Of a stretch of 59,692 bases of DNA, positions 26,641 through 59,692 are shown piece by piece. Origin of the DNA: an uncultured Bacteroides sp. (GTDB taxonomy: Bacteria; Bacteroidota; Bacteroidia; Bacteroidales; SM23-62); assembly GCA_964575235.1 (NCBI GenBank), contig CAZNQG010000003.1, forward strand, positions 1 through 59,692. The letters are read 5' to 3'. Every line of letters starts with the position of its first letter. The stretch's first letter is position 1. A program made the position numbers and the translations under genes. The notes beneath the pieces were generated by a model. That model ran no database searches, was not told the origin of the DNA, and was given only the letters and a program-made list of their open reading frames with translations.

Positions 26641-27486
26641 TCAGTAGACTTCAGGAACGAAGGTCTGCTCGGAGATGGGAGGCCTCACATAACCCTCCTT
26701 GCTGATCGGGGGCAGTTTGATCTTCTCGTGCTTCATTTCCTTGTAGGGTATCATGCTGAGCAGGTGGTGGATGCAATTCAGCCGGGCCCTTCTTTTGTCA
26801 TCTGCTTCCACCACCCACCACGGGGATATCTTGGTGTCCGTATAGGCAAACATCTCGTCTTTGGCCTTTGAATATTCCACCCAGCGGCTACGAGAATTCA
26901 GGTCCATCGTGCTGAACTTCCAGTTCTTGGTCGGGTCCTCGATCCTTTCCCTGAAACGTTTCTCCTGCTCTTCATCGCTCACGGAGAACCAGTATTTCAT
27001 AAGGATGATGCCCGAGTGGATCAGCATCTCCTCGAAGCGTGGGCAGGACCGGAGAAAATCCCAGTATTCATCTTCCGTGCAGAATTCCATGACCCTTTCA
27101 ACACCGGCCCGGTTATACCAGCTCCTGTCGAAGAGTACGATTTCCCCGGCAGCAGGCAAATGAGAAACATAACGCTGGAAATACCACTGGGTTTTTTCCT
27201 TCTCGGTCGGTACGCCCAGGGCCACGACCCGGCAGACCCTCGGATTCAGACGCTGGATGATTCGCTTGATAACGCCTCCCTTTCCTGCTGCATCCCGGCC
27301 TTCAAAGATCACTACGATCCGGAGGCCCTTTGACCGGACCCACTCATGCATTTTGACAAGCTCTGCCTGCAAGCGTTCCAGTTCCTTGAAATAAAACTGC
27401 TTATCCAGCTTCTTGTGGTCATGTTCCGGCGATGGATCTTCATGCTTGTGGTTTTTCTTCTTGTGGTTACCTTTATTATGGCTCAT
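26641..27486 (-). CDS. ppk2: Polyphosphate kinase 2
   Basis: EGRDAAGKGG Walker A, FDRSWYNRAGVERVM; start MSHNKG at 27486. Confidence 0.93.
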   Translation of the reverse strand: MSHNKGNHKKKNHKHEDPSPEHDHKKLDKQFYFKELERLQAELVKMHEWVRSKGLRIVVIFEGRDAAGKGGVIKRIIQRLNPRVCRVVALGVPTEKEKTQWYFQRYVSHLPAAGEIVLFDRSWYNRAGVERVMEFCTEDEYWDFLRSCPRFEEMLIHSGIILMKYWFSVSDEEQEKRFRERIEDPTKNWKFSTMDLNSRSRWVEYSKAKDEMFAYTDTKISPWWVVEADDKRRARLNCIHHLLSMIPYKEMKHEKIKLPPISKEGYVRPPISEQTFVPEVY

Positions 27487-27544
27487 TTTGCCTGTTTTAC
27501 AGGTAAATATAGGTAATATGAAAACCAAAATCAACGTTGGGACC

Positions 27545-28705
27545 TCAGGATAATTCCCGGGCTCCATCCCCGACTTCGCCGATGTAAAAATCAGGTTTCA
27601 ATCCGGTCCTGGCATGGTAAGCCGATCCTACTTCCTTGATGAAATCCTCGAGCCGGTCCCCGGCCACCAGGCTGACTGTGCATCCGCCAAAACCGGCACC
27701 CGTCATTCTTGATCCGATTACGCCGTCCACCTTCCGGGCTTCTTCTACGAGGGTATCCAGTTCCTTGCCGGTAACCTCGTAATCATCGCGCAGCGAGTCA
27801 TGGGATGCGTTCATAAGCTTTCCGAACTGCTCCAGGTCGGAAGCCTTCAGGGCCCTGACGGCATCCAGGCAGCGCTGGTTTTCCGAAACCACGTGATGCG
27901 CCCTTCTCCTAACCGTAGGGTTGGGTATCAGGTGCTGGAGTTCCAGGAACCTGGAATAACTTAGCTCCCCGAGCTGGGTTATTTTTTCCTCTGTGGAAAT
28001 GTCGCGGACGGACTGTTCGCATTCTGACCGGCGTTCATTGTACTTTGAATCTGCGAGTCCCCTGCGCTTATTCGTATTGGAAATGACGATGGTGTAATTC
28101 CCCAGGGAGAGGGGAACCTGCTCGTAATCAAGTGTGGCGCAGTCCAGGAGCACTGCGTGGTCCGTTTTTCCCATCCCGGATGCAAACTGGTCCATGATTC
28201 CGCAATTCACACCTACGTATTCGTTTTCTGCCTTCTGACCGATTTTAATCAGGTCGATCATATCCAGGTTCAGGTCCATTAAGGCATTCACCGCAATCCC
28301 GGTTACCATTTCTATGCTCGCAGAGGACGATAGTCCCGCGCCCCTTGGGACATCCCCGGAAAACAGGAGGTCCATGCCGGTAAGTTTAAAGCCCCTTTTA
28401 GCGATCTGGTCCATAACCCCGAGGGGATACTGTACCCACCTGAATTCCGGCTTCGAGTAGCCTTCGGCAGGAACGCTGGTTTTCTGGTCAAAATTCGTGG
28501 TGGCGAAACGTATGATGCCGCTGTCATTCGGTCGGGCCAGCAGGTATGTGCCGTATTGAAGGGCGCAGGGGAAAACGTAACCCCCGTTGTAATCCGTATG
28601 CTCACCGATCAGGTTTACGCGTCCGGGCGCGAAAAACCGCCGTACATCCCGCCCGTCTTTATCATAGAGCCCCAGAAACTTCTCCATTAACTTTTCTGCT
28701 TCCAT
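27545..28705 (-). CDS. galK: Galactokinase
   Basis: PGRVNLIGEHTDYN, PRGAGLSSSA, CGIMDQ, SRMTGAGFGGC. Confidence 0.95.
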   Translation of the reverse strand: MEAEKLMEKFLGLYDKDGRDVRRFFAPGRVNLIGEHTDYNGGYVFPCALQYGTYLLARPNDSGIIRFATTNFDQKTSVPAEGYSKPEFRWVQYPLGVMDQIAKRGFKLTGMDLLFSGDVPRGAGLSSSASIEMVTGIAVNALMDLNLDMIDLIKIGQKAENEYVGVNCGIMDQFASGMGKTDHAVLLDCATLDYEQVPLSLGNYTIVISNTNKRRGLADSKYNERRSECEQSVRDISTEEKITQLGELSYSRFLELQHLIPNPTVRRRAHHVVSENQRCLDAVRALKASDLEQFGKLMNASHDSLRDDYEVTGKELDTLVEEARKVDGVIGSRMTGAGFGGCTVSLVAGDRLEDFIKEVGSAYHARTGLKPDFYIGEVGDGARELS

Positions 28706-49500: not shown

Positions 49501-49554
49501 ATGAACGTCCGTACCAACATCCAGCAGGTGCTGCACGATGCCCTCATACATTGA
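46510..49554 (+). CDS. GH3 beta-N-acetylglucosaminidase fused to a beta-lactamase-family serine hydrolase
   Basis: QDAEWG, RSFGE, KHFPGHGDTDKDSH (NagZ motif), SDAL nucleophile; C-terminal SVTK, YSD, GHSGFTG. Confidence 0.9.
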   Translation: MKRPEKISTVLLAILSPLVISSYHFSGHQQSGERVDPPFMDAGTEWVDSVYESLNRDERIAQLLMVRAYSNMGQAHTESILKLIKRYNIGGLCFFQGGPARQAILTNLYQAEAKTPLLIAQDAEWGPAFRLDSVLAYPRQMTLGAIQGEETIRQMGRDVAEQLRMIGVNMNMAPVMDVNNNPKNPVIGSRSFGEDPWNVSRKGIAYMEGMQEGRVLAVAKHFPGHGDTDKDSHHTLPLLPHSRERFWDTEFIPFREAIEKGISGIMTAHLEVPALDSTPGLASSLSQKVVTGILKEELGFRGIAISDALDMAGAEMHHSSGELEALAFKAGNDILLLPSSVPKAISEIKREIRRGNITWERVEESCKKILSAKYWAAIEHPLEISGLHGKLSDPRYLLTRSELYRASLTLLENQGEFIPLKRLDTLKIATLVIGDTCLNEFQKTVDLYLPSVHFNISREATAQDFLGLLSELDSFNLVLAGLVNTDMRASRNYGITENSVLFLNGLTAMKPTVLALFASPYSLSEFDFGERLMGLLMAYEDKDLQRGFGAQLIFGGIRAQGKLPVSSGENYRAGDGIQTGDAIRLRYGLPEEAGVDSRLLYRIDSIALDAIRSKAMPGCQVLAARNGLVFCQKTFGYHTYRRRDTVKWNDLYDIASVTKIVATLPVLMRLTQEGKFSVDDRLGKYLPELDTSNKGDLLIRDILSHHAGLHPWIPFYYSTLETMDPDQDLISRELSSSYPFRLADHVFLNKNLDFVEGAYAAGPSEEYPIQVADGLFLNRSYRDSIWQRIVNSELRKKKEYLYSDLGYYFLQPVAEALAGSSLEVYTLEHLYRPLGAAYTSYLPLQHFPQERIVPTENDLYFRRQLLRGYVHDPGAAMMGGVAGHAGVFSNANDLAKIMQMYLNGGSYGGVQFLADSIIRQYNTCIHCEEGNRRGLGFDKPEMDYEKEGPTCRCVSPDSFGHSGFTGTLVWADPETGLIYVFLSNRVHPDTDNPRLVEMNVRTNIQQVLHDALIH

Positions 49555-49576
49555 AAAACCATACAAACCGATTCGT

Positions 49577-49981
49577 ATGAAACCAAGCCATATAGAACAC
49601 ATCGGGATTGCAGTGAGCGACCTGGCCGCCGCAATTTCTTTCTATGAGAATGTCCTGGGACTGGAATGTTATGCGATCGAAGAGGTGGCAGACCAGAAAG
49701 TACGTACCGCCTTCTTCAGGGTGGGGGATACCAAGATCGAACTGCTGGAATCGACCGACCCGGAAGGTCCGGTGGGCAAATTCATCGAAAAACGGGGGGA
49801 GGGCATCCACCATATCGCCTTTGCCGTGGAAAACTCGGCAAAGGCCCTCAGGGAAGCGGAAAGCAAGGGGGTGAAACTCATCGATGAAACCGCCCGGAAG
49901 GGTGCGGAAGGCCTGGAGATCGGCTTCCTTCATCCCCGCTCAACCTTCGGGGTGCTGACCGAGTTCTGCAGCAAGCCTTGA
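49577..49981 (+). CDS. mce: Methylmalonyl-CoA epimerase
   Basis: HIEHIGIAV, KIELLE, GEGIHHIAF, FLHP..TFGVLTE (VOC fold metal ligands). Confidence 0.9.
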   Translation: MKPSHIEHIGIAVSDLAAAISFYENVLGLECYAIEEVADQKVRTAFFRVGDTKIELLESTDPEGPVGKFIEKRGEGIHHIAFAVENSAKALREAESKGVKLIDETARKGAEGLEIGFLHPRSTFGVLTEFCSKP

Positions 49982-50097: not shown

Positions 50098-51297
50098 ATG
50101 GCTTCAATGGGTAAATCAGGAAGTGCCGGGAACCACGGCGACAGAATACGATCGGATTGCCGGGTGGAGGTCGAGATCACCGGATCCGGCGGGATTACGG
50201 TCGAGGTCCACAGCAAGGTGGATGCGCTTTACGGCAAATCCATACGGCACCTTGTTAAAAGGATGATGGGCCATTTTGGGATCAAGGATGCCAGGATCCG
50301 CATCCTGGACAGCGGCGCCCTGGAATTCGTCCTGTCGGCCAGGATCGAAGCCGCCCTCAAAAAGGCAGTCCCTTCCCTAAAGGCTCGGTTTCTTCCGGAG
50401 GGACTGACGGAAGATCCTCCCTGGGCGGAACGTGACCGGTTTCGCATTACCCGGTTGTATCTTCCCGGGAACATACCCAGCATGATGATCAATGCAGGCA
50501 TCCACAGACCGGATGGGATCATTCTTGACCTGGAGGATTCTGTGGCACCCGCTGCCAAGGATGAGGCCAGGATCCTGGTTCGAAATGCCCTTGGGGCGGT
50601 CGATTTTTACGGCGCGGAACGGATGGTGCGGATAAACCAGCTTCCCGGGGGACTCCAGGACCTGGAGGCCGTCGTTCCACTGCATCCCGACCTGGTCCTG
50701 ATCCCGAAGGCCGAGGCCCCGGCGGACATAACCGCCGTTGCGGAAAAGATCCGTGAATGTTCACACGACGCCGGGATTTGCCTGATGCCCATCCTTGAAT
50801 CCGCTCTTGGAATTGAGCGGGCGTACGAAATTGCCACGGCAGATGAGAACGTCGTTGCCATGGCCATCGGCCTGGAGGATTATACCGCCGACATAGGGGT
50901 GCAGCGTACCGAAGAGGGTTCTGAATCCCTTTTTGCACGCTCCCGCATGGTTAACGCCTGCAAGGCGGCAGGCATACAGGCGATCGATTCGGTGTATTCC
51001 GATGTCGATAACGAGGCGGGGCTCCGCGAAACCTCCATCCGGTCAAGGAATATGGGGTTCGAGGGAATGGGCTGCATACATCCCCGGCAAATCCCGGTTA
51101 TACGCGAAGCGTTTCAGCCTTCAAAAGAGGAAATAGAGAAAGCCCTGTCGATCGTGGAGGCATTCGAGGAGGCCGAACGAAAAGGCCTCGGGGTGGTAAG
51201 CCTTGGCTCCAAGATGATCGATCCGCCCGTGGTTAAAAGAGCTCAGAGGGTGCTTGCACTAGCCCGCCGGGCCCGTCTTATAACAGATAAACCGTAA
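50098..51297 (+). CDS. Fusion of citrate lyase ACP-like (CitD) and citryl-CoA lyase beta (CitE) domains
   Basis: First ~90 aa CitD-like (SKV..LYG..I, DSGAL...ARI); then RLYLPG, LDLEDSV, VRIN, PKAE, ESALG, GLEDY, CIHPRQI, MIDPP. Confidence 0.85.
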   Translation: MASMGKSGSAGNHGDRIRSDCRVEVEITGSGGITVEVHSKVDALYGKSIRHLVKRMMGHFGIKDARIRILDSGALEFVLSARIEAALKKAVPSLKARFLPEGLTEDPPWAERDRFRITRLYLPGNIPSMMINAGIHRPDGIILDLEDSVAPAAKDEARILVRNALGAVDFYGAERMVRINQLPGGLQDLEAVVPLHPDLVLIPKAEAPADITAVAEKIRECSHDAGICLMPILESALGIERAYEIATADENVVAMAIGLEDYTADIGVQRTEEGSESLFARSRMVNACKAAGIQAIDSVYSDVDNEAGLRETSIRSRNMGFEGMGCIHPRQIPVIREAFQPSKEEIEKALSIVEAFEEAERKGLGVVSLGSKMIDPPVVKRAQRVLALARRARLITDKP

Positions 51298-51298
51298 A

Positions 51299-52864
51299 AT
51301 GACCACAAAGCACAGTTCCATGATCACGAACGCAGCCGGAAGGCAAGTGCCCGAAACGGTCAACGGAAAGCCGCAAGTGGCTTATATGGGACTAAACCGA
51401 TACCGGCCGCAAGGCCATCGGTACGGTCCCCCCATCGACACCTGCAACGATTTCCCTTCCGGCGGTGACAAGAGGGTTCCTTCCCTTGAGGAAGCCCTCG
51501 GGAAGTGCGGCCTGAAGAACGGGATGTACATATCTACCCATCACCATTTCCGGAACGGTGACCTGCTTGCCAACCAGGTATTCGATGCAGCACACGATAT
51601 GGGTATGAAAAACCTGGTCTGGTTTCCTTCGGCATCATTCCCTTGCCATGAATACCTGATCAAATACCTGGAAGACGGTACGATACACCATATCGAGGGA
51701 AGCATGAACGGTCCCCTGGGAAGATTTACCTCCGAGGGCAGAATGAAAGGAACGGGCGTGCTCCGGTCGCACGGGGGCAGGTACCAGGCCGTCCAGGACG
51801 GGGAGGTACACATCGACATTGCCGTTATAGGGGCAGGCTGTGCGGATCCCTTCGGCAACGCAAACGGGCTTTCAGGTCCTTCTGCCAGCGGGCTCCTGGG
51901 ATTTGCACTGGCCGATTCCCAGTACGCCGACCGGGTCATCCTGGCCACGGACAACATGGTTCCGTTTCCCTGCATTCCATGGCAGATCCAGGGGAATTAC
52001 GTCGATTACACAGTGGAAATGGACAGGATCGGGGACCCCGAAAAGATCGTATCCGGTACAACCCGGATCACCCGGAGTCCGGACAGGTTGTGCCTGGCGG
52101 AACTGACGGCCCGGTTCTGCGATGCGGCAGGAATCATCCGCGACGGTTTTTCCTTCCAAAGCGGGGCGGGGGGGACCTCCCTCGCGGTGGGGGAGTATTT
52201 CCGTAAGATTATGAGAGAGAAGAACATCCGGGCACGTTTTGCCCGGGGAGGCAGCAATGCCTACCTGGTATCCATGCTCGAGGAAGGCCTTGTGGAATAC
52301 ATACTGGACGGCCAGACGTTCGACCTGGAAGGGATTCGCAGCATGCGGGATAATCCGGCCCATGTATGGACCAGTCCCTTTACCTCATACAACCACCACG
52401 GCAAGGGCAATTTTGCAGGCATGGTGGATGTGGTCATACTGGGGGCCACCGAGATCGACCTTGAATTCAATGCAAATGTGGTCACTCATTCCGACGGTTA
52501 CCTGCTGCACGGGCTGGGCGGGTGGCAGAACTGCCTGTTCTCGAAAACGGTAATCCTGCCGGTGCCCTTGTTCAGGGACAGGATCCCGGTCATCCGGGAC
52601 CGAGTAACAACCCTTTGCGGACCGGGGGAACTGGTTGATGTTATCGTCACCGAACGAGGCATCGCCATCAATCCCATTCGTCGCGACCTTATCGAAAAAG
52701 TGGAGGGAGCGGGACTTCCGATCAGGGACATACGGGACTTAAAGCAGGAGGCCGAAAGAATATGCGGGAGGCCGGAGAAGCCCCGCTTCACGAAAAAACC
52801 GGTCGCTATAGTGAAATGGGTTGACGGAACCGTCCTGGACACCGTCTGGCAGGTAAAGTCATGA
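51299..52864 (+). CDS. citF: Citrate lyase alpha subunit (CoA-transferase)
   Basis: STHHHFRNGD, LRSHGGR, GDPEKI, QSGAGG, LGATEID, TLCGPG..VD.IVTERGIAINP. Confidence 0.88.
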   Translation: MTTKHSSMITNAAGRQVPETVNGKPQVAYMGLNRYRPQGHRYGPPIDTCNDFPSGGDKRVPSLEEALGKCGLKNGMYISTHHHFRNGDLLANQVFDAAHDMGMKNLVWFPSASFPCHEYLIKYLEDGTIHHIEGSMNGPLGRFTSEGRMKGTGVLRSHGGRYQAVQDGEVHIDIAVIGAGCADPFGNANGLSGPSASGLLGFALADSQYADRVILATDNMVPFPCIPWQIQGNYVDYTVEMDRIGDPEKIVSGTTRITRSPDRLCLAELTARFCDAAGIIRDGFSFQSGAGGTSLAVGEYFRKIMREKNIRARFARGGSNAYLVSMLEEGLVEYILDGQTFDLEGIRSMRDNPAHVWTSPFTSYNHHGKGNFAGMVDVVILGATEIDLEFNANVVTHSDGYLLHGLGGWQNCLFSKTVILPVPLFRDRIPVIRDRVTTLCGPGELVDVIVTERGIAINPIRRDLIEKVEGAGLPIRDIRDLKQEAERICGRPEKPRFTKKPVAIVKWVDGTVLDTVWQVKS

Positions 52865-52907: not shown

Positions 52908-53600
52908 CTAATCCGTTCCGTCGTCGTCGTAACTGAGCATTTCCACCCCATCCTCTTCCGAGTTGTCGTCCCGGTAATGAATTCTGAGCCGCACCGAATC
53001 CCTGAGGTAGTTTATTCTTCCGATCTCCACCTTGGTAATGTCCAGTTTGGTTTTTTCCCGCAGATCCTTCAGCAACTCGGCCCTACGTTCGGGCTGGACA
53101 AGTTCTATGTTTTCATAATCGATCACCTTCTTGGATTCGTTCTTCATCAGCCAGACCCTCTCCAGGAAATATACCACCACGATGGTAATGACATTGGTGA
53201 ACACCAGCTCAAGGTAGCTGATGTTCATGTTGGAGAGTCCGTTGATCACCGAGATCCCGATTACGATGAACAGGTAGGTCATTTCCTTGATGGGAATGGG
53301 ATTGGTCCGGTACCGGATGATCCCGAATATGGCGAAGAGTCCCAGAGCGAATCCGATGCCCAGTGAAATGCTGTCCAGCAGGAAGCAGATCAGGAACACG
53401 ATGGTGCTGATGAGTATGAAAGCGAACAGGTAATTTTTTCTCCTGGATACGGAATAGTAGAGGCCGCGTACGATGATCCCGATGACCAGAAAATTGAAGC
53501 TGAATCGGATGACCAGGGCCAGGAGTGCATCCGGGTTAAAGAAATTCGTTCCGAGAAGCTGGCCTTGGTCAGCCTGCAGCAGGGTAAGATCTGTAAGCAT
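52908..53600 (-). CDS. DUF4956 membrane protein
   Basis: GFALGLFAIFGIIRYRT..I.IKEMTYLF motif, several TM helices and a soluble C-terminal domain. Confidence 0.85.
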   Translation of the reverse strand: MLTDLTLLQADQGQLLGTNFFNPDALLALVIRFSFNFLVIGIIVRGLYYSVSRRKNYLFAFILISTIVFLICFLLDSISLGIGFALGLFAIFGIIRYRTNPIPIKEMTYLFIVIGISVINGLSNMNISYLELVFTNVITIVVVYFLERVWLMKNESKKVIDYENIELVQPERRAELLKDLREKTKLDITKVEIGRINYLRDSVRLRIHYRDDNSEEDGVEMLSYDDDGTD

Positions 53601-54357
53601 TTTCCAATTTGTTGATTTTACGAATTTTGCTCTTGAAACGATTGTACTTGACCGGGCTTTTAAGAAGAACGGTGCCCAGGCAATACTTGCTGGTTGATCC
53701 GGGGTAAATGCGTTCCTCTTTCAGGATTTTCATGAAATCGGTAGAACCGCCTGATTGTCCCCTCTTCACTTCACATACACACAGAAAGGGAAGGGATGTA
53801 TTTTTATTACCGCAGCGAAAGGAAAGATCCAGGTCAATGGTGATGCGCTCCGCGATCCCGTTTCCGGCCAGGGTAATCCTGCGGAACAGGGTCCACAGTG
53901 CGGGACTCAGTTCGGCCGCATCCAGGGGGGAACGCTCTTCAATATACGCCCGGGATTTTTCCGAGAGTTCCTGCTCGATGCTTTCGCACCGGATCCTGGA
54001 CTTCCGGGTCCGTTCGTTTGAAATTTTTCGCTTTACCTCGAGGAAAATCCCGCAGGTATCCTCGTATTCCCGGAACCTTACCTTGTAGCGGGGCCTGATC
54101 CCATTGTGATGGTCGAAATAGCACCGAAGGTCCGGAGTATCCAGGTAAAGGGAGTTGTACCGGAACATCCGGTTCCCGTTAATTTCAAGAGCCCGGTACA
54201 ACCCGGTGGCTTTTTCAAGGATCCCCGGCAGCATTTGAGTGTGAACAAGATATTTCGTATCCACCCGGCTCATCAGCCGGACTGCATCCATTTCCTCAAG
54301 GCTGATGCTTTCGAACTTACGGGTAGCTTCAACGATCCGATTATATTCATTTTCCAT
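53569..54357 (-). CDS. VTC-domain (polyphosphate polymerase-like, CYTH fold) protein
   Basis: RVDTKY, SLYLDT, RYKVRFREY, FLEVK, ERITID, EVK, SKYC. Confidence 0.85.
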   Translation of the reverse strand: MENEYNRIVEATRKFESISLEEMDAVRLMSRVDTKYLVHTQMLPGILEKATGLYRALEINGNRMFRYNSLYLDTPDLRCYFDHHNGIRPRYKVRFREYEDTCGIFLEVKRKISNERTRKSRIRCESIEQELSEKSRAYIEERSPLDAAELSPALWTLFRRITLAGNGIAERITIDLDLSFRCGNKNTSLPFLCVCEVKRGQSGGSTDFMKILKEERIYPGSTSKYCLGTVLLKSPVKYNRFKSKIRKINKLENAYRSYPAAG

Positions 54358-54362
54358 GGGTG

Positions 54363-54370
54363 CAAAGATA
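54363..54370 (-). promoter_or_regulatory. Bacteroidota -7 element for the VTC-DUF4956 operon
   Basis: TATCTTTG on minus strand ending 5 nt before the ATG at 54357, implying a near-leaderless transcript. Confidence 0.5.
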
Positions 54371-54478
54371 AAAGAAATACAGTAAATATGTTGAACGGGC
54401 ATTTTTGGAATATGGGGTGAAAAGCGATAAATTGCGACGGGTTCAATCCTTGAACAGCCTAATTCTGTATCTCATTGC

Positions 54479-54652: not shown

Positions 54653-56113
54653 CTATGCGGCCGGTATCCGCCTGAGCAGCTCCAGCAGAAGCTTCCAGAA
54701 CCGTTCCGTGCTTTCCAGGTGTATCCTTTCCGTAGGTGTGTGCGCCCCCCGGATGGTCGGTCCGAAGGAAAGCATATCCAGTCCCGGGTACTTTTCAAGG
54801 ATCAGCCCGCATTCAAGTCCAGCGTGAATGGCCCTGACAACCGGCTGGCTCCCGAAAAGACTGAGGTAGGCCTGCTTCGTAATACGCAGGATTTCGGAAT
54901 CCGGGTTCGGGTCCCAGCCCGGGTAACCGTCCGAATGTTCGACTTGTGCACCGCCGTTCTCAAAGCAGGCCCGGATTCTCGCCGCGATTTCCTTCTTGGC
55001 TCTGTCCACCGAACTCCTCTGGCTGGTCGTAACAACGAACGTATCCCTGCCTTCATGCTTCACGGAGGCCAGGTTGGTCGAGGTTTCCACCAGACCCTCG
55101 AGCGACCGGCTCCACCCGATCACACCGTGGGGGCAGCAATCGATGGCTTCCAGTATTTTCATATGTGCATCTTCAGGCAATACGTATTCGGGTATTCCGG
55201 CAGGATCCAGGCTTAGTTTCATGTCGGGCTCAAAATCAGCCAGCTCCGCTGAAACTACATTTGCATAAGCATTGAATTGTTTTTCGAGGTCTGGCATCAG
55301 GCGGGCCGGCAGTGTGAGCAGGGCATAGGCATCCCTGGGTATGGCGTTCCGCATGTTGCCTCCGTCAAAGCTGGACAAACGCACCCCGGAATCATTGCTT
55401 TCCAGCAGGAGAAATCGGTTCAGCACCTTTATGGCATTTCCGGGACTGATGTGGATCTCGTCACCGGAATGCCCCCCCTTGAAGCCTTCAACCGATACCC
55501 GGCAACCGATACAGTCTTTACAGGGTTTCTGTGGCTGGAAGCGAAAGGTGCCGATGGTATCGATCCCGCCGGCACATCCGATGAACAACTCGCCTTCGTC
55601 CTCCGAGTCCAGGTTAATCAGGATCTCTCCGTTCAGAAAATCAGGATGCAGGTTCTTGGCCCCCGTCATCCCGGATTCTTCATCCACCGTGAAGAGGCAT
55701 TCCAGGGGAGGATGGATCAATTCTTTGCTCTCAAGGATGGCCATCTGGGAGGCAATCCCTATCCCGTCATCCGCTCCCAGGGTGGTATCCGTGGCACGGA
55801 TCCATTCCCCGTCGCGCACAGGCACGATGGGATCGCTTGTGAAATCATGGCTGGAGGAGGGGTCTTTTTCGCCTACCATGTCCAGGTGGCTCTGTAGGAT
55901 GACCTTTTTGCTATTTTCCATGCCTGGAGACGCCGGTTTGCATATCAGCACGTTCCCGATGTCATCCTTCCTGGCTTCCAGTTTTTGTTTGTCTGCAAAC
56001 GAAAGCAGGTATTCGATCATCCGCTCCTCGGATTTGGAGGGTCTGGGTATCCTGCAAATCTCCTCAAAAAGCTCCCACACTCTTGCAATGCCTGTATTTA
56101 CCGCTGATTTCAT
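54653..56113 (-). CDS. pepD: Aminoacyl-histidine dipeptidase (M20C)
   Basis: QSHLDMV, TTLGADDGIG, DEESGM, NLDSE, GGHSG, HAGLECG, AHTPTE; start MKSAVN at 56113. Confidence 0.92.
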   Translation of the reverse strand: MKSAVNTGIARVWELFEEICRIPRPSKSEERMIEYLLSFADKQKLEARKDDIGNVLICKPASPGMENSKKVILQSHLDMVGEKDPSSSHDFTSDPIVPVRDGEWIRATDTTLGADDGIGIASQMAILESKELIHPPLECLFTVDEESGMTGAKNLHPDFLNGEILINLDSEDEGELFIGCAGGIDTIGTFRFQPQKPCKDCIGCRVSVEGFKGGHSGDEIHISPGNAIKVLNRFLLLESNDSGVRLSSFDGGNMRNAIPRDAYALLTLPARLMPDLEKQFNAYANVVSAELADFEPDMKLSLDPAGIPEYVLPEDAHMKILEAIDCCPHGVIGWSRSLEGLVETSTNLASVKHEGRDTFVVTTSQRSSVDRAKKEIAARIRACFENGGAQVEHSDGYPGWDPNPDSEILRITKQAYLSLFGSQPVVRAIHAGLECGLILEKYPGLDMLSFGPTIRGAHTPTERIHLESTERFWKLLLELLRRIPAA

Positions 56114-56232
56114 CAAATGGGACCTGACCTTGAAATGTTTTACAAAATAAATGATTAATAACACATGGATGAAAAAAGGGGAAAGTTTTTTTTCATCTAT
56201 TTTTAGGACTTCAGCATCAGCGATTCATTCTC

Positions 56233-57447
56233 ATGAGGGACAAAAGGAAAATTGTTACCATGCCCGGAGACGGCATCGGCAGGGCGGTATTGAAGGAGGC
56301 CATACGCATACTGGAGGCAGCGGGCTTCAGCGCGGAATACATCGAGGCGGATATCGGCTGGGAATTCTGGCGGAAGGAAGGGAATCCGCTCCCGGAGCGT
56401 ACCGTGAAACTCCTGGAGGAACACAGGATCGGCCTGTTCGGGGCCATAACCTCAAAGCCCAAGGAGGAAGCCGCTGCCGAACTGGACCCGTCGCTGCGGG
56501 ACAGGGGACCGGTATACTCAAGCCCCATTGTGGGTTTACGGCAGCATTTCAATCTGGATGTGTGCATACGCCCCTGTCACACATACCCGGGCAATCCGCT
56601 GAATTTTATTCGCAGGGGACCGGGAGATACCGTCGAGGAACCCGTTGTGGATGTGGTGATTTTCAGGCAGAACACGGAAGGGCTTTACGGGGGTGTGGAA
56701 TGGACCGATCCGCCCGAGCAGGTTTACCAGGCCCTGCTGAGCCATCCGAAATTCAGGCAGAATTTTTCACATGTCCCCAAATCGGAACTTTCCGTTTCCA
56801 CGCGGATCTTCAGCAAAGCGGCCACCGGCCGGATCCTCCGTGCTGCATTTGAATATGCAAAGAAATTCAACTACCGGTCGGTTACGGTATGCGAGAAACC
56901 GAATGTAATCCGCGAGACTTCGGGATTAATGTTCAGGCTTGCAAAGGAAATTCAGAAAAACGAATACCCGCACATCGAGCTATGGAACACAAACATCGAC
57001 GCCCAGATGATGTGGCTGACTAAAAACCCGGAGGATTACGGGGTGATCGTAGCCGGGAACATGTTCGGCGATATCGTTTCGGATGGATTTGCGGGTTTGA
57101 TCGGGGGACTCGGATTTGCCTGCAGTGCCAACATCGGGGAAGAAGTTGCCGTTTTCGAACCTACTCACGGATCGGCGCCAAAATACGCATCATACGAGAT
57201 CTCTATCGTTAACCCTATTGCCATGGTCGAATCGGCCTGCATGATGCTGGACCACATCGGGGAAAGCGGAATAGCCACCCGGATCCGGAAAGCCATCGGA
57301 AAGGTGGTGCGGGAAGGAAAGGTCCGTACCTACGATATGCTTAAACTGCCCGGAAGGGAAGATGTCATCTCACAGGGTGCGGCCTCTACAACAGCAATGG
57401 CCGATGCGATCATCGTGAACCTGGATTCAAATCCCCGGAAATTATGA
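56233..57447 (+). CDS. Isocitrate/isopropylmalate-family beta-decarboxylating dehydrogenase (homoisocitrate dehydrogenase-like)
   Basis: PGDGIG, GAITS, YSSPIVGLR, RQNTEGLY, EKPN, NMFGDIVSD, FEPTHGSAP. Confidence 0.88.
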   Translation: MRDKRKIVTMPGDGIGRAVLKEAIRILEAAGFSAEYIEADIGWEFWRKEGNPLPERTVKLLEEHRIGLFGAITSKPKEEAAAELDPSLRDRGPVYSSPIVGLRQHFNLDVCIRPCHTYPGNPLNFIRRGPGDTVEEPVVDVVIFRQNTEGLYGGVEWTDPPEQVYQALLSHPKFRQNFSHVPKSELSVSTRIFSKAATGRILRAAFEYAKKFNYRSVTVCEKPNVIRETSGLMFRLAKEIQKNEYPHIELWNTNIDAQMMWLTKNPEDYGVIVAGNMFGDIVSDGFAGLIGGLGFACSANIGEEVAVFEPTHGSAPKYASYEISIVNPIAMVESACMMLDHIGESGIATRIRKAIGKVVREGKVRTYDMLKLPGREDVISQGAASTTAMADAIIVNLDSNPRKL

Positions 57448-57989
57448 AAGAAAAAGTCTATGAACTATGGCCCGAACTGAAATGGATCGAGGACCCTTTG
57501 CTCCGGGAGCAAACTGCCAGCACATGGGAACTGGCACTTTCGAAAAGCGATCTGAGCCCGGAGGACCTCGAGAGCATCCCTTTTACGCTCCTGGTTCCGG
57601 ATCTGAAGGTATCCTTCATGGAACACAAACGATGCGTGGTCCACATTGCCCGCGACAGCGGTGAACACATCCGGACTCACCTGGGTAAGGGCCTGACCGT
57701 GAATATGGACGTCCTGATTGCCGGTGCCATACTGGCCGATGTGGGAAAGCTCCTGGAATACGAAAAAAAGGATGGCAGGATCGTCCAGGGAACCTACGGG
57801 AAGTACCTGCGCCACCCTTTTTCGGGCGTCAGCCTCGCTGAAGCCTGCGGGGTACCCCCCGAGGTCTGTCATATCATCGCGGCACATGCCGGGGAGGGAG
57901 ACCTGGTCAAACGGTCCGTGGAAGCCTGTATCGTGCATCATTCAGACTTCATGACTTTTCTCCCGTTTAAAAGCAGGCTGGAGACATAA
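57444..57989 (+). CDS. HD/HDIG-domain protein (variant motif)
   Basis: EH...ILADVGK...RHPFSG...AAH...HHSD; ATGA overlap with the dehydrogenase. Confidence 0.75.
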   Translation: MKEKVYELWPELKWIEDPLLREQTASTWELALSKSDLSPEDLESIPFTLLVPDLKVSFMEHKRCVVHIARDSGEHIRTHLGKGLTVNMDVLIAGAILADVGKLLEYEKKDGRIVQGTYGKYLRHPFSGVSLAEACGVPPEVCHIIAAHAGEGDLVKRSVEACIVHHSDFMTFLPFKSRLET

Positions 57990-58052: not shown

Positions 58053-59692
58053 ATGCTGAGCTTTGATCAGATACTTGTCTTCATTGTCCTTCTTTTCATC
58101 CTTATTTCCCTCTACAGGGAGATTCTCGGACCGGCATTCACCTTCCTGGTAGGCGTACTTGCCCTGGGCATTTTTGGCGTGCTCACACCCACCGAAATCA
58201 TCAGGGGATTCGGAAATGAGCAGATTGCCGTGATCCTCCTGCTCCTGCTGCTCGGGGATGTGATCCGCAGGACGGCTGTGGTGGAGGTGATATTCGACCG
58301 TTTCTTCAGATCGGCAAGATCGTACAGGGGATTCATGAGCCGGATGACTTTGCTCATAGGGGGGTTTTCGGCTTTCCTTAACAATACGCCCCTGGTGGCC
58401 GTCATGATTCCGTACGTTCATTCCTGGTGCAAACGGAAAAACATATCGCCCTCGAAATTCCTGATCCCGCTTTCCTATGCAGCCATCCTAGGGGGATGCG
58501 CCACCCTTATAGGAACCTCGACCAACCTGATTGTAAACGGTCTGGTTGTTGACCAGACGATTCTGCCGGGACTCGAACCCCTGAAAATATTTGACTTTGC
58601 GGCGGTGGGGGTCCCCATGATTGTCATTGGCTGGCTTTACCTTTTATTCTTCGGCGAGAAGTTGCTGCCTTCCCGCCCGGATACCATGACACAATTCTCG
58701 TTGGGACGGCGCGAGTACCTGTTCGAGGCCAAGGTCAGGGATAAATCCCCCCTGATCGGGAAGACCATCGAGGAATCGGGATTGCGCCAGAAGCCCGGTT
58801 TCTCTATCGTCGAGATCTGGAGGCGGGGTTACAAAATCACCGTATTCGGTCCCGATTTCCTGCTGGACAAGGGGGATATTTTGATCTTCGCAGGCGAAAC
58901 GGAAGCCGTAGCGGATATGATTGGCTCAAGCACGGAACTGGTAATCGCCGAAGTTGGAATGCTGACCCATAAATCCCGCGCCGAGATCGTGGAGGTGGTC
59001 GTGTCACAGAACTCCACCATCGAACACAAGACCGTGCGCGAGGCTAATTTCAGGAGCAAATACGACGCTGCAATCGTTTCGGTCCACCGCAACGGGGAAC
59101 TGATCAAGGGAAAGATCGGGGAGGTCGTTTTAAAATCAGGCGATGTCCTGCTGCTCTTTACAGGAGAGAATTTTGTTGAGCGTACGGTAGCAACCAAGGA
59201 TTTCTATTTCATTTCCAAGGTGAAGGAAATGGTAAAGCTGGAATGGTATAAAGCCGCCACCCTGCTGGGAGGGCTGCTCGTTGCCATCACCCTTGCAGCC
59301 CTGAACCTGGTGCCTCTGTTCCTGAGCCTTCTCTTTATCCTGGTCCTTTCCCTGGCCATGAGGATCACACAGCCCAGGGAACTGCCCCGGGCCATAGACT
59401 ATAACCTGGCCCTCATTATCGTACTTGCGCTGGCCCTCGGCACGGCCATGGTGAAAACCGGCACGGCCGACCTTGTCGCGGACGGAGTGATCCGGTTGTT
59501 TGCCCCCCTGGACAAGGTGGGCATCCTGGCCGGCATTTACCTGATCACCACCATACTGGCCGCCTACATCACCAGCAAGGCCGCTGCTGCCATCATATTT
59601 CCCATTGCCCTGCAAACGGCTGTGAACCTGCAGCTAGACCCGACTCCGTTCATTATGGACCCCGCGTATGCAGCGGGGGCTAATTTCTTCCC
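58053..59692 (+). CDS. SLC13/CitMHS-family anion permease with TrkA-C domains, 3'-truncated
   Basis: Open from ATG 58053 to window end; SAFLNNTPLV, LIPLSYAAILGGCATLIGTSTNL, two TrkA-C-like soluble repeats. Confidence 0.88.
   Translation, partial: MLSFDQILVFIVLLFILISLYREILGPAFTFLVGVLALGIFGVLTPTEIIRGFGNEQIAVILLLLLLGDVIRRTAVVEVIFDRFFRSARSYRGFMSRMTLLIGGFSAFLNNTPLVAVMIPYVHSWCKRKNISPSKFLIPLSYAAILGGCATLIGTSTNLIVNGLVVDQTILPGLEPLKIFDFAAVGVPMIVIGWLYLLFFGEKLLPSRPDTMTQFSLGRREYLFEAKVRDKSPLIGKTIEESGLRQKPGFSIVEIWRRGYKITVFGPDFLLDKGDILIFAGETEAVADMIGSSTELVIAEVGMLTHKSRAEIVEVVVSQNSTIEHKTVREANFRSKYDAAIVSVHRNGELIKGKIGEVVLKSGDVLLLFTGENFVERTVATKDFYFISKVKEMVKLEWYKAATLLGGLLVAITLAALNLVPLFLSLLFILVLSLAMRITQPRELPRAIDYNLALIIVLALALGTAMVKTGTADLVADGVIRLFAPLDKVGILAGIYLITTILAAYITSKAAAAIIFPIALQTAVNLQLDPTPFIMDPAYAAGANFF

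Follow-up and report, generated by a model that had tools for sequence, protein, structure and literature searches.

The stretch analyzed here (the window) is a contig of 59,692 nucleotides, CAZNQG010000003.1, from the genome of an uncultured Bacteroides sp. (GCA_964575235.1; genome G000, contig C3; 3.47 Mb, 98% complete) whose nearest relatives are labelled Bacteroidota/Bacteroidales. It encodes a citrate-lyase-like system on its forward strand. A CitD-CitE fusion of 399 amino acids (positions 50098–51297) joins a carrier-fold domain (about residues 1–92) to a Mg-dependent acyl-CoA C-C lyase barrel, and is followed, one base past its stop, by a CitF-type class II CoA/acyl carrier protein (ACP) transferase of 521 amino acids (51299–52864). 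Located 3.4 kb downstream on the same strand are a beta-decarboxylating dehydrogenase with an NADP(H)-type cofactor site, assigned as homoisocitrate dehydrogenase (HICDH)-like from NCBIfam, co-occurrence and individual residues (56233–57447), and its constant partner, an HD-fold protein without the His of the HD motif (57444–57989).

An earlier reading made from the letters alone (the sequence-only reading) had described a CitD-like domain fused N-terminally to CitE with citF next to it. Pfam and NCBIfam bear this out, and both open reading frames are intact. PF06857, the CitD/MdcC carrier family, matches fusion residues 19–90 (E 1e-16), PF03328, the CitE barrel, residues 120–329, and PF04223 the CitF protein (E 1e-134). 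Judging from homologues, the fusion may start at the second ATG, at 50107. The fusion and CitF are each 41% identical to their E. coli counterparts, CitE and CitF, and the NCBIfam equivalog cut-offs are missed for citE (273 versus 443 bits), citD (59.5 versus 63.5) and citF (TIGR01584, 498 versus 501). R178, E234 and D261, which we take to be the catalytic Arg and the Mg-binding Glu and Asp, agree with ordinary CitE in 80 of 80 fusions, as many as contain D375, presumably the C-terminal Asp of the barrel. In a fold search the barrel matches malyl-CoA lyase and CLYBL, and models of stand-alone lyase families score lower on the fusion protein than the CitE model does. Compared with only four ordinary CitE and six ordinary CitF sequences, five columns of the CitE part and 32 of CitF are fixed differently.

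The fusion forms a large family, with relatives encoded in 438 or more stretches of the species-genome collection. Each of the 120 best homologues has the same three Pfam families, and the best 80 relatives belong to Bacteroidota, Ignavibacteria, Chlorobiota, Cloacimonadota and Chloroflexota. Two loci (L027 and L061) contain one citDE followed by two tandem fusion-type citF copies. A promoter and terminator scan gave no excess over shuffles.

The fusion has lost the site at which an ordinary carrier is modified. In CitD this site, which bears phosphoribosyl-dephospho-CoA, is presumably Ser14, to which Ser25 of MdcC aligns, two residues ahead of a conserved Asp. Here the column is occupied by the first residue of Arg18-Ser19-Asp20 (50149–50157, forward strand). 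When 201 fusions are aligned to E. coli CitD and to three ordinary CitD sequences from Bacteroidales, it holds Arg in 198 fusions and a gap in three. The next column, that of Ser19, is Ser in 200 of the 201, Gly in E. coli CitD and MdcC, and Ser in ordinary CitD otherwise. The serine of this RSD motif, which the sequence-only reading had considered as the possible modified residue, is therefore off by one position and is not the ordinary attachment site; the MdcC and E. coli CitD alignments both rule it out.

The domain had also been called degenerate, on account of the motifs AGNHGDRIRSD and GALEF. Both are present in the translation, but the carrier is strongly conserved, with R18, S19, D20, C21, G73, L75, R82 and E84 invariant among 37 homologues, and fusion residues 21–100 are predicted to fold well (block predicted local distance difference test scores of about 87–96). 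Cys21, at a predicted strand position, is kept in 199 of 201 fusions and is Phe in one homologue. GALEF, taken as a departure from GALDC, is no lesion and was discarded as a sign of decay, since ordinary Bacteroidales CitD reads GALS, GALE or GALT in that column. A PDB sequence search with the carrier domain alone gave no match. To judge from the alignments, the domain is re-purposed and not decaying. By analogy with malonate decarboxylase, where Ser25 of MdcC bears the prosthetic group and the protein connects the transferase to the catalytic subunits (PMC5534430, in the part available), it has likely been retained to bridge CitE and CitF, and Arg18 possibly binds a CoA phosphate. An atypical fusion in genome G057 (C109; L088:8360-9592) has SKND at the RSD motif; this genome lacks citF, the dehydrogenase and the hydratases described below, and the gene is apparently a decaying remnant.

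In ordinary citrate lyase clusters, the roles of CitC, CitG and CitX are stated in the available part of PMC2996986. Searches for CitG (PF01874), CitX (PF03802) and CitC (PF08218), which gave matches in positive-control genomes, found none of the three in the window or anywhere else in G000, so that an absence first noted for the window extends to the whole genome. CitX was searched only in G000; a wider search for CitG and CitC covered 79 fusion genomes and a control with only the ordinary system (G012). Both families matched in the same five genomes, the control and 4 of the 79, and in each of these four an ordinary citD of the ESSD type is present as well, together with citE and citF. Ordinary citrate lyase operons of Bacteroidota and Chlorobiota, in which a fused CitX-CitG of about 460 amino acids precedes citC, were seen in loci L085, L087, L094-L096, L099 and L100.

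As the carrier Ser and the CitG/CitX/CitC set, the two defining features of the ACP-dependent citrate lyase system, are both missing, the fusion and its CitF are not members of that system, though predicted to be citrate-lyase-like in chemistry. Citrate lyase subunits accept acetyl-CoA in vitro. Because attachment site and maturation genes are absent both here and across the family, free CoA esters are the probable currency, and their turnover is the most likely mode suggested by the sequences. The sequence-only reading had proposed a two-component lyase using free CoA. Its free-CoA part stands as a probable reading, while its two-component part does not, the genes at 56233–57989 belonging to the same system.

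This is evident from the gene content of 81 loci, the window and 80 relatives, many of them cut by contig ends. citF is present in 70, the dehydrogenase and the HD-fold gene in 24 each, aconitase-family hydratases in 21 and a PrpD-like gene in 16, with clusters found in Ignavibacteria, Chloroflexota, Cloacimonadota and Bacteroidales. Clusters contain either one hydratase and PrpD or two hydratases without PrpD. In an order-wide sample of 80 Bacteroidales genomes, one per family, 38 have the fusion (among them a split copy in G030, a partial one in G043 and the atypical G057) and 42 do not. The HICDH-like enzyme occurs in 35 of the 38 fusion genomes and in 0 of 42 others, and the homoaconitase-like cluster hydratases, usually as two paralogues, in 36 of 38 and 0 of 42; Fisher tests on such counts are descriptive only, the genomes being related. 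CitDE-CitF, the dehydrogenase, the HD protein and the hydratases thus constitute one multi-enzyme pathway, not a two-component unit. In G000 the hydratases are encoded on C42 and C146, with one of the two genes split over contig ends, and the cluster-type PrpD was not found in this genome. A quick hydratase tree, which carried long-branch warnings and was used for clades only, gave three clades.

In all 23 sequences of the HD partner, A/I/C-D stands where H-D would be expected, so that the His-Asp motif of HD phosphohydrolases is missing. Its fold is weakly HD-like (YhaM, E 2.9e-3); the fold search gave no match at E ≤ 0.001, and the Atlas gave only HD-like clusters. The protein is possibly a non-hydrolytic carboxylate-binding enzyme. 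Many basic residues are invariant in it (K62, R63, K102, R123, R157).

The sequence-only reading had listed citramalate, methylcitrate and homocitrate as possible substrates, and among these the partner genes favor homocitrate. In Ignavibacteria, the cluster hydratase passes the fungal homoaconitase equivalog TIGR00139 in both sequences tested (882 and 884 bits versus a cut-off of 530). The best NCBIfam hits of the dehydrogenase are to AksF, below cut-off, and its N-terminal part is closest to Thermus thermophilus HICDH. It keeps all catalytic residues, has the HICDH-like FGAITS at the site of KGPLTT in isocitrate dehydrogenase (ICDH), and has Ile at the position of ICDH Asn115 in 23 of 23 sequences. 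The Val found in the column of T. thermophilus HICDH Arg85 was dropped as a homoisocitrate marker, as E. coli ICDH also has Val there, and a PDB sequence search with a 60-residue piece of the dehydrogenase gave no match. Methylcitrate fits poorly because the fixed partner is a secondary-alcohol dehydrogenase; 2-methylisocitrate is a tertiary alcohol and cannot be oxidized by this family. A test for the 2-methylcitrate cycle found the dehydrogenase and no PrpB or PrpC in the cluster. No homocitrate synthase was found in the conserved cluster, and the HMGL-family matches in G000 are those of its leu operon and one contig-end fragment.

The cofactor site also distinguishes the dehydrogenase from T. 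thermophilus HICDH, which has an NAD-type loop. Residues K344, Y345, V351 and Y391 are present in 23 of 23 sequences, and Lys replaces Arg395 in 22; in E. coli ICDH, residues of this type determine the use of NADP (PMC8623467, PMC5054688, in the parts available). An NADP-type site suits a reductive step without proving one.

A connection to lysine is suggested by further companions of the fusion. An LKR-type saccharopine dehydrogenase is encoded in 37 of the 38 Bacteroidales fusion genomes and in 12 of the 42 others. Among 41 further fusion genomes an SDH-type enzyme is present in 25; lysine 6-aminotransferase (Lat), searched in 31 of the 41, was found in all eight SDH-negative Ignavibacteria (one match partial) and in five of eight Chloroflexota, so that 38 of the 41 have SDH or Lat. 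Physical linkage is also observed. The relative G111 combines the system with histidine and lysine catabolic genes in 13 consecutive co-oriented genes, hutH-hutU-hutI-FTCD-citDE-citF-dehydrogenase-HD-acn-acn-pcd-LKR-SDH, whose Pcd passes the P6C dehydrogenase cut-off NF050084. In four loci citDE is immediately preceded by saccharopine genes (SDH-LKR in L020, L025 and L075, LKR in L053), and in G073 such genes adjoin a cluster hydratase. G000 itself has lysA, Pcd, LKR and SDH, and neither glutaryl-CoA dehydrogenase nor kamD was found in it. A five-genome search for kamD gave no match; the 80-genome kamD search, which served as its positive control, showed a weak trend only (1 of 38 fusion genomes versus 7 of 42 others). 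A 1099-amino-acid open reading frame in G045 (C130; L225:3504-6800) resembles two fused aldehyde dehydrogenases, with a P5C-dehydrogenase-like N-terminus and a Pcd/ALDH7 match.

Taken together, the gene content, the lost serine, the absent maturation genes, the co-occurrences and the family assignments are best explained by a homocitrate lyase that uses free CoA and completes a lysine-degrading aminoadipate route run in reverse, a reading to which a probability of roughly 0.56 is given. Lysine would first yield aminoadipate semialdehyde, through either the saccharopine enzymes or Lat; Pcd/ALDH7 would turn the semialdehyde into 2-aminoadipate, and a transaminase would produce 2-oxoadipate. The NADPH-type dehydrogenase would carboxylate 2-oxoadipate to homoisocitrate, which homoaconitase would dehydrate to cis-homoaconitate. 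The second hydratase, PrpD-like or, as in G000, another aconitase-family enzyme, would then form homocitrate, probably the (S)-isomer. From known stereochemistry, a CitE-type enzyme would be expected to handle (S)-homocitrate, which is out of homoaconitase's reach; this need would explain the second hydratase, as it does PrpD for methylcitrate. CitF, a predicted homocitrate:acetyl-CoA CoA-transferase, would shift CoA from acetyl-CoA onto homocitrate with release of acetate, and the fusion, a predicted homocitryl-CoA lyase, would split homocitryl-CoA into 2-oxoglutarate and regenerated acetyl-CoA. The net reaction would be 2-oxoadipate + CO2 + NADPH to 2-oxoglutarate + acetate.

The broader claim, held as a whole at even odds, is that this constitutes a widespread, undescribed and oxygen-independent form of lysine catabolism, in which 2-oxoadipate is carboxylated at the expense of NADPH, two hydratase steps follow, and a descendant of citrate lyase has exchanged its covalent arm for free CoA and turned into a homocitrate lyase, and that it occurs in about half of the sampled Bacteroidales families and in four or more further phyla, where it is annotated wrongly as citrate lyase or reverse tricarboxylic acid (TCA) cycle. 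A literature search covering few subscription journals turned up neither a homocitrate lyase nor a reversed aminoadipate route.

Several observations weigh against the lysine pathway. The hydratases of G000 and other Bacteroidales reach only the LeuC/HacA subfamily-level models, and in G023, a 100% complete genome, a single hydratase was seen instead of two. Oxidative ICDH has the same NADP site, Ser113 and Val116 as the dehydrogenase, so that these features settle neither direction nor substrate. Three of the eight Chloroflexota genomes showed neither SDH nor Lat, and a Pcd/ALDH7 match is present in only 18 of the 38 Bacteroidales fusion genomes, leaving 20 without, compared with 5 of 42 others. 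Only 9 of 38 fusion genomes have a lysA above its cut-off, versus 23 of 41 others (G001 left out), a depletion that fits either auxotrophy or a biosynthetic role. The complementarity with glutaryl-CoA dehydrogenase that was looked for was not seen (9 of 38 fusion genomes versus 4 of 42). Moreover, the sampled genomes are related and have a common lifestyle, so the counts overstate independence. The methylmalonyl-CoA genes upstream could point to removal of 2-oxoglutarate by way of succinyl-CoA, or to another substrate. Finally, a citrate-transporter-family (CitMHS) gene directly follows the HD gene in the window.

The condensing direction, already raised by the sequence-only reading, is kept as a rival but is not the best explanation. 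Here acetate or acetyl-CoA and 2-oxoglutarate would yield homocitrate, 2-oxoadipate and, via saccharopine, lysine, in place of homocitrate synthase and the diaminopimelate route. The depletion of lysA and the 20 fusion genomes without Pcd are consistent with such a role, LKR and SDH are reversible, and a CoA-recycling route would lie near equilibrium by our own, uncomputed estimate. Biosynthesis is nevertheless considered unlikely. No LysX and no Lys2-like or Lys2-size reductase was found in five of five genomes, four of them chosen for lacking both lysA and Pcd. G000 retains lysA, and Lat and Pcd, which travel with the cluster, are catabolic enzymes. In addition, Ignavibacterium album, which has the same fusion, was judged an unlikely lysine maker and required yeast extract (PMC3362086, in the part available). 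Weak lysA-like matches occur in many Bacteroidales genomes and are mistakable for lysA; they were not counted. One such gene of about 450 amino acids in G000, below cut-off and scoring better to FslC, lies on C80 (L223:1379-6001) as a LysA/FslC-like decarboxylase gene in a row with an ATP-grasp-like gene and a urea-transporter-like gene.

A second possibility is a carrier-free citrate lyase that converts citrate to oxaloacetate and acetate, serving either the fermentation of citrate or a branch of the reverse TCA cycle; isocitrate and aconitate would then be the substrates of the dehydrogenase and the hydratases. This was proposed for I. album (PMC3362086, as far as its text is available) and agrees with the 41% identities to E. 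coli CitE and CitF, the ICDH-like NADP site and Ser113 of the dehydrogenase, and the CitMHS-family gene of the window. A complete six-gene cluster in a Melioribacteraceae genome is also followed, about 2.5 kb downstream, by the ATP-citrate lyase genes aclB/aclA (L069:13812-17180). Against this, the four genomes with CitG and CitC keep an ordinary citrate lyase beside the fusion system, and G000 has a separate citrate synthase, aconitase and ICDH in addition to leu genes. One aconitase is enough for citrate, where two hydratases are found here, the Ignavibacteria hydratase is a fungal-type homoaconitase, and CitF differs at its 32 fixed columns. A citrate-cleaving role is therefore rated as quite unlikely.

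It is still less probable that the system shortens or lengthens another 2-oxoacid, of the citramalate/2-oxobutyrate type, methylcitrate or another amino-acid-derived acid, with the lysine genes as mere lifestyle companions. Directly upstream of the fusion lies a methylmalonyl-CoA epimerase gene (mce, 49538–49981, forward strand; TIGR03081, 147 bits versus a cut-off of 115), a frequent Bacteroidales neighbor whose link to the system is uncertain. mce is present in 15 of the 81 loci, often with the mmdADCB decarboxylase genes and directly upstream; together with the PrpD-like partner of 16 loci and the subfamily-level scores of the Bacteroidales hydratases, this would suit such a substrate. The PrpD match is weak, however (83 bits versus a cut-off of 575), 2-methylisocitrate is not oxidizable by the dehydrogenase family, SDH, LKR and Pcd are physically linked to the system in separate phyla, and the homoaconitase equivalog is passed in Ignavibacteria.

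Very improbable, lastly, is a carrier still armed covalently at Ser19 or Cys21 by an unrelated enzyme such as the unexplained HD partner, with no free-CoA system, since despite the near-invariance of both residues Ser at the Ser19 column is shared by ordinary CitD (E. coli has Gly) and is probably structural, Cys21 sits in a predicted strand and is replaced by Phe in one homologue, no CitG is available to make the cofactor, and the HD fold is hydrolase-like and lacks its motif His.

Other neighbors were also noted. The CitMHS/SLC13-type transporter gene with TrkA_C domains (58053–59692, forward strand, running past the contig end) may import di- or tricarboxylates and is not recurrent in other loci. 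An M20 peptidase gene (PepD-like; 54653–56164, reverse strand) is divergent from the dehydrogenase and neighbors the system in six loci. A VTC-domain gene and a DUF4956 membrane gene (52908–54402, reverse strand) form a pair that we take to be usually tied to polyphosphate metabolism, and a PPK2 gene lies at 26644–27567. In G000 C42:11068-23300, a Type I-C-like CRISPR-Cas locus, from cas3 to cas2 with a long array, adjoins cluster hydratase genes.

If the lysine pathway is correct, it would represent a way of turning lysine into 2-oxoglutarate and acetate with incorporation of CO2, in abundant bacteria of sediments, digesters and groundwater (the fusion being present in 38 of 80 sampled Bacteroidales families), and would define a homocitrate lyase activity. 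The use of citE and citF in such metagenome-assembled genomes as evidence for citrate fermentation or the reverse TCA cycle would then need correction. Even if the substrate is citrate, the system would be a CitDEF complex without prosthetic group, CitG, CitX or CitC, and so a carrier protein that lost its carrier role. All steps are accessible to assay with six purified proteins, and a cultured carrier of the system exists in I. album.

Comparison with known systems places the fusion close to CitDEF with CitC, CitG and CitX, as in E. coli, Klebsiella and Geobacter bemidjiensis. The CitD fold, the CitE barrel with its catalytic Arg, Glu and Asp, and the CitF transferase are shared, as is the predicted transfer-then-cleave chemistry of this ATP-independent citrate (pro-3S)-lyase, in which acetate is released. 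In contrast to CitDEF, CitD is here fused to CitE, has a three-residue insertion and Arg at Ser14, and occurs without citC, citG or citX, and the fixed partners are an HICDH-like enzyme, two hydratases and an HD-fold protein. The I. album genes IALB_1146 and IALB_1147, the same fusion and citF, were read in 2012 as citrate lyase for fermentation or the reverse TCA cycle (PMC3362086). The available part of that account does not discuss the lost Ser, the lack of maturation genes or the partner cluster, and “aconitase”, “isocitrate dehydrogenase” and “saccharopine” occur 0 times.

The upper alpha-aminoadipate pathway, represented by fungal Lys20/21, aconitase, Lys4 and Lys12 and by Thermus homocitrate synthase, LysTU and HICDH, is matched here by two hydratase steps, a putative homoaconitase and an HICDH-like dehydrogenase; the putative homoaconitase is of the fungal equivalog in Ignavibacteria and of HacA/LysT type elsewhere. 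The present cluster differs in having a reversible CoA-transferase/lyase pair instead of homocitrate synthase, an NADP-type dehydrogenase, links to Pcd, Lat and the saccharopine enzymes, and a predicted run in reverse.

Malonate decarboxylase MdcA-MdcC has a carrier of the same family, and the bridging by MdcC is a precedent for a structural role, although MdcC retains Ser25 together with the prosthetic group and depends on MdcB/MdcG (PMC5534430, in the part available). Malyl-CoA lyase, CLYBL, RipC and (S)-citramalyl-CoA lyase have no CitD domain and are partnered by other CoA-transferases. They share the barrel fold, however, and act on free acyl-CoA esters, which indicates that the fold needs no carrier.

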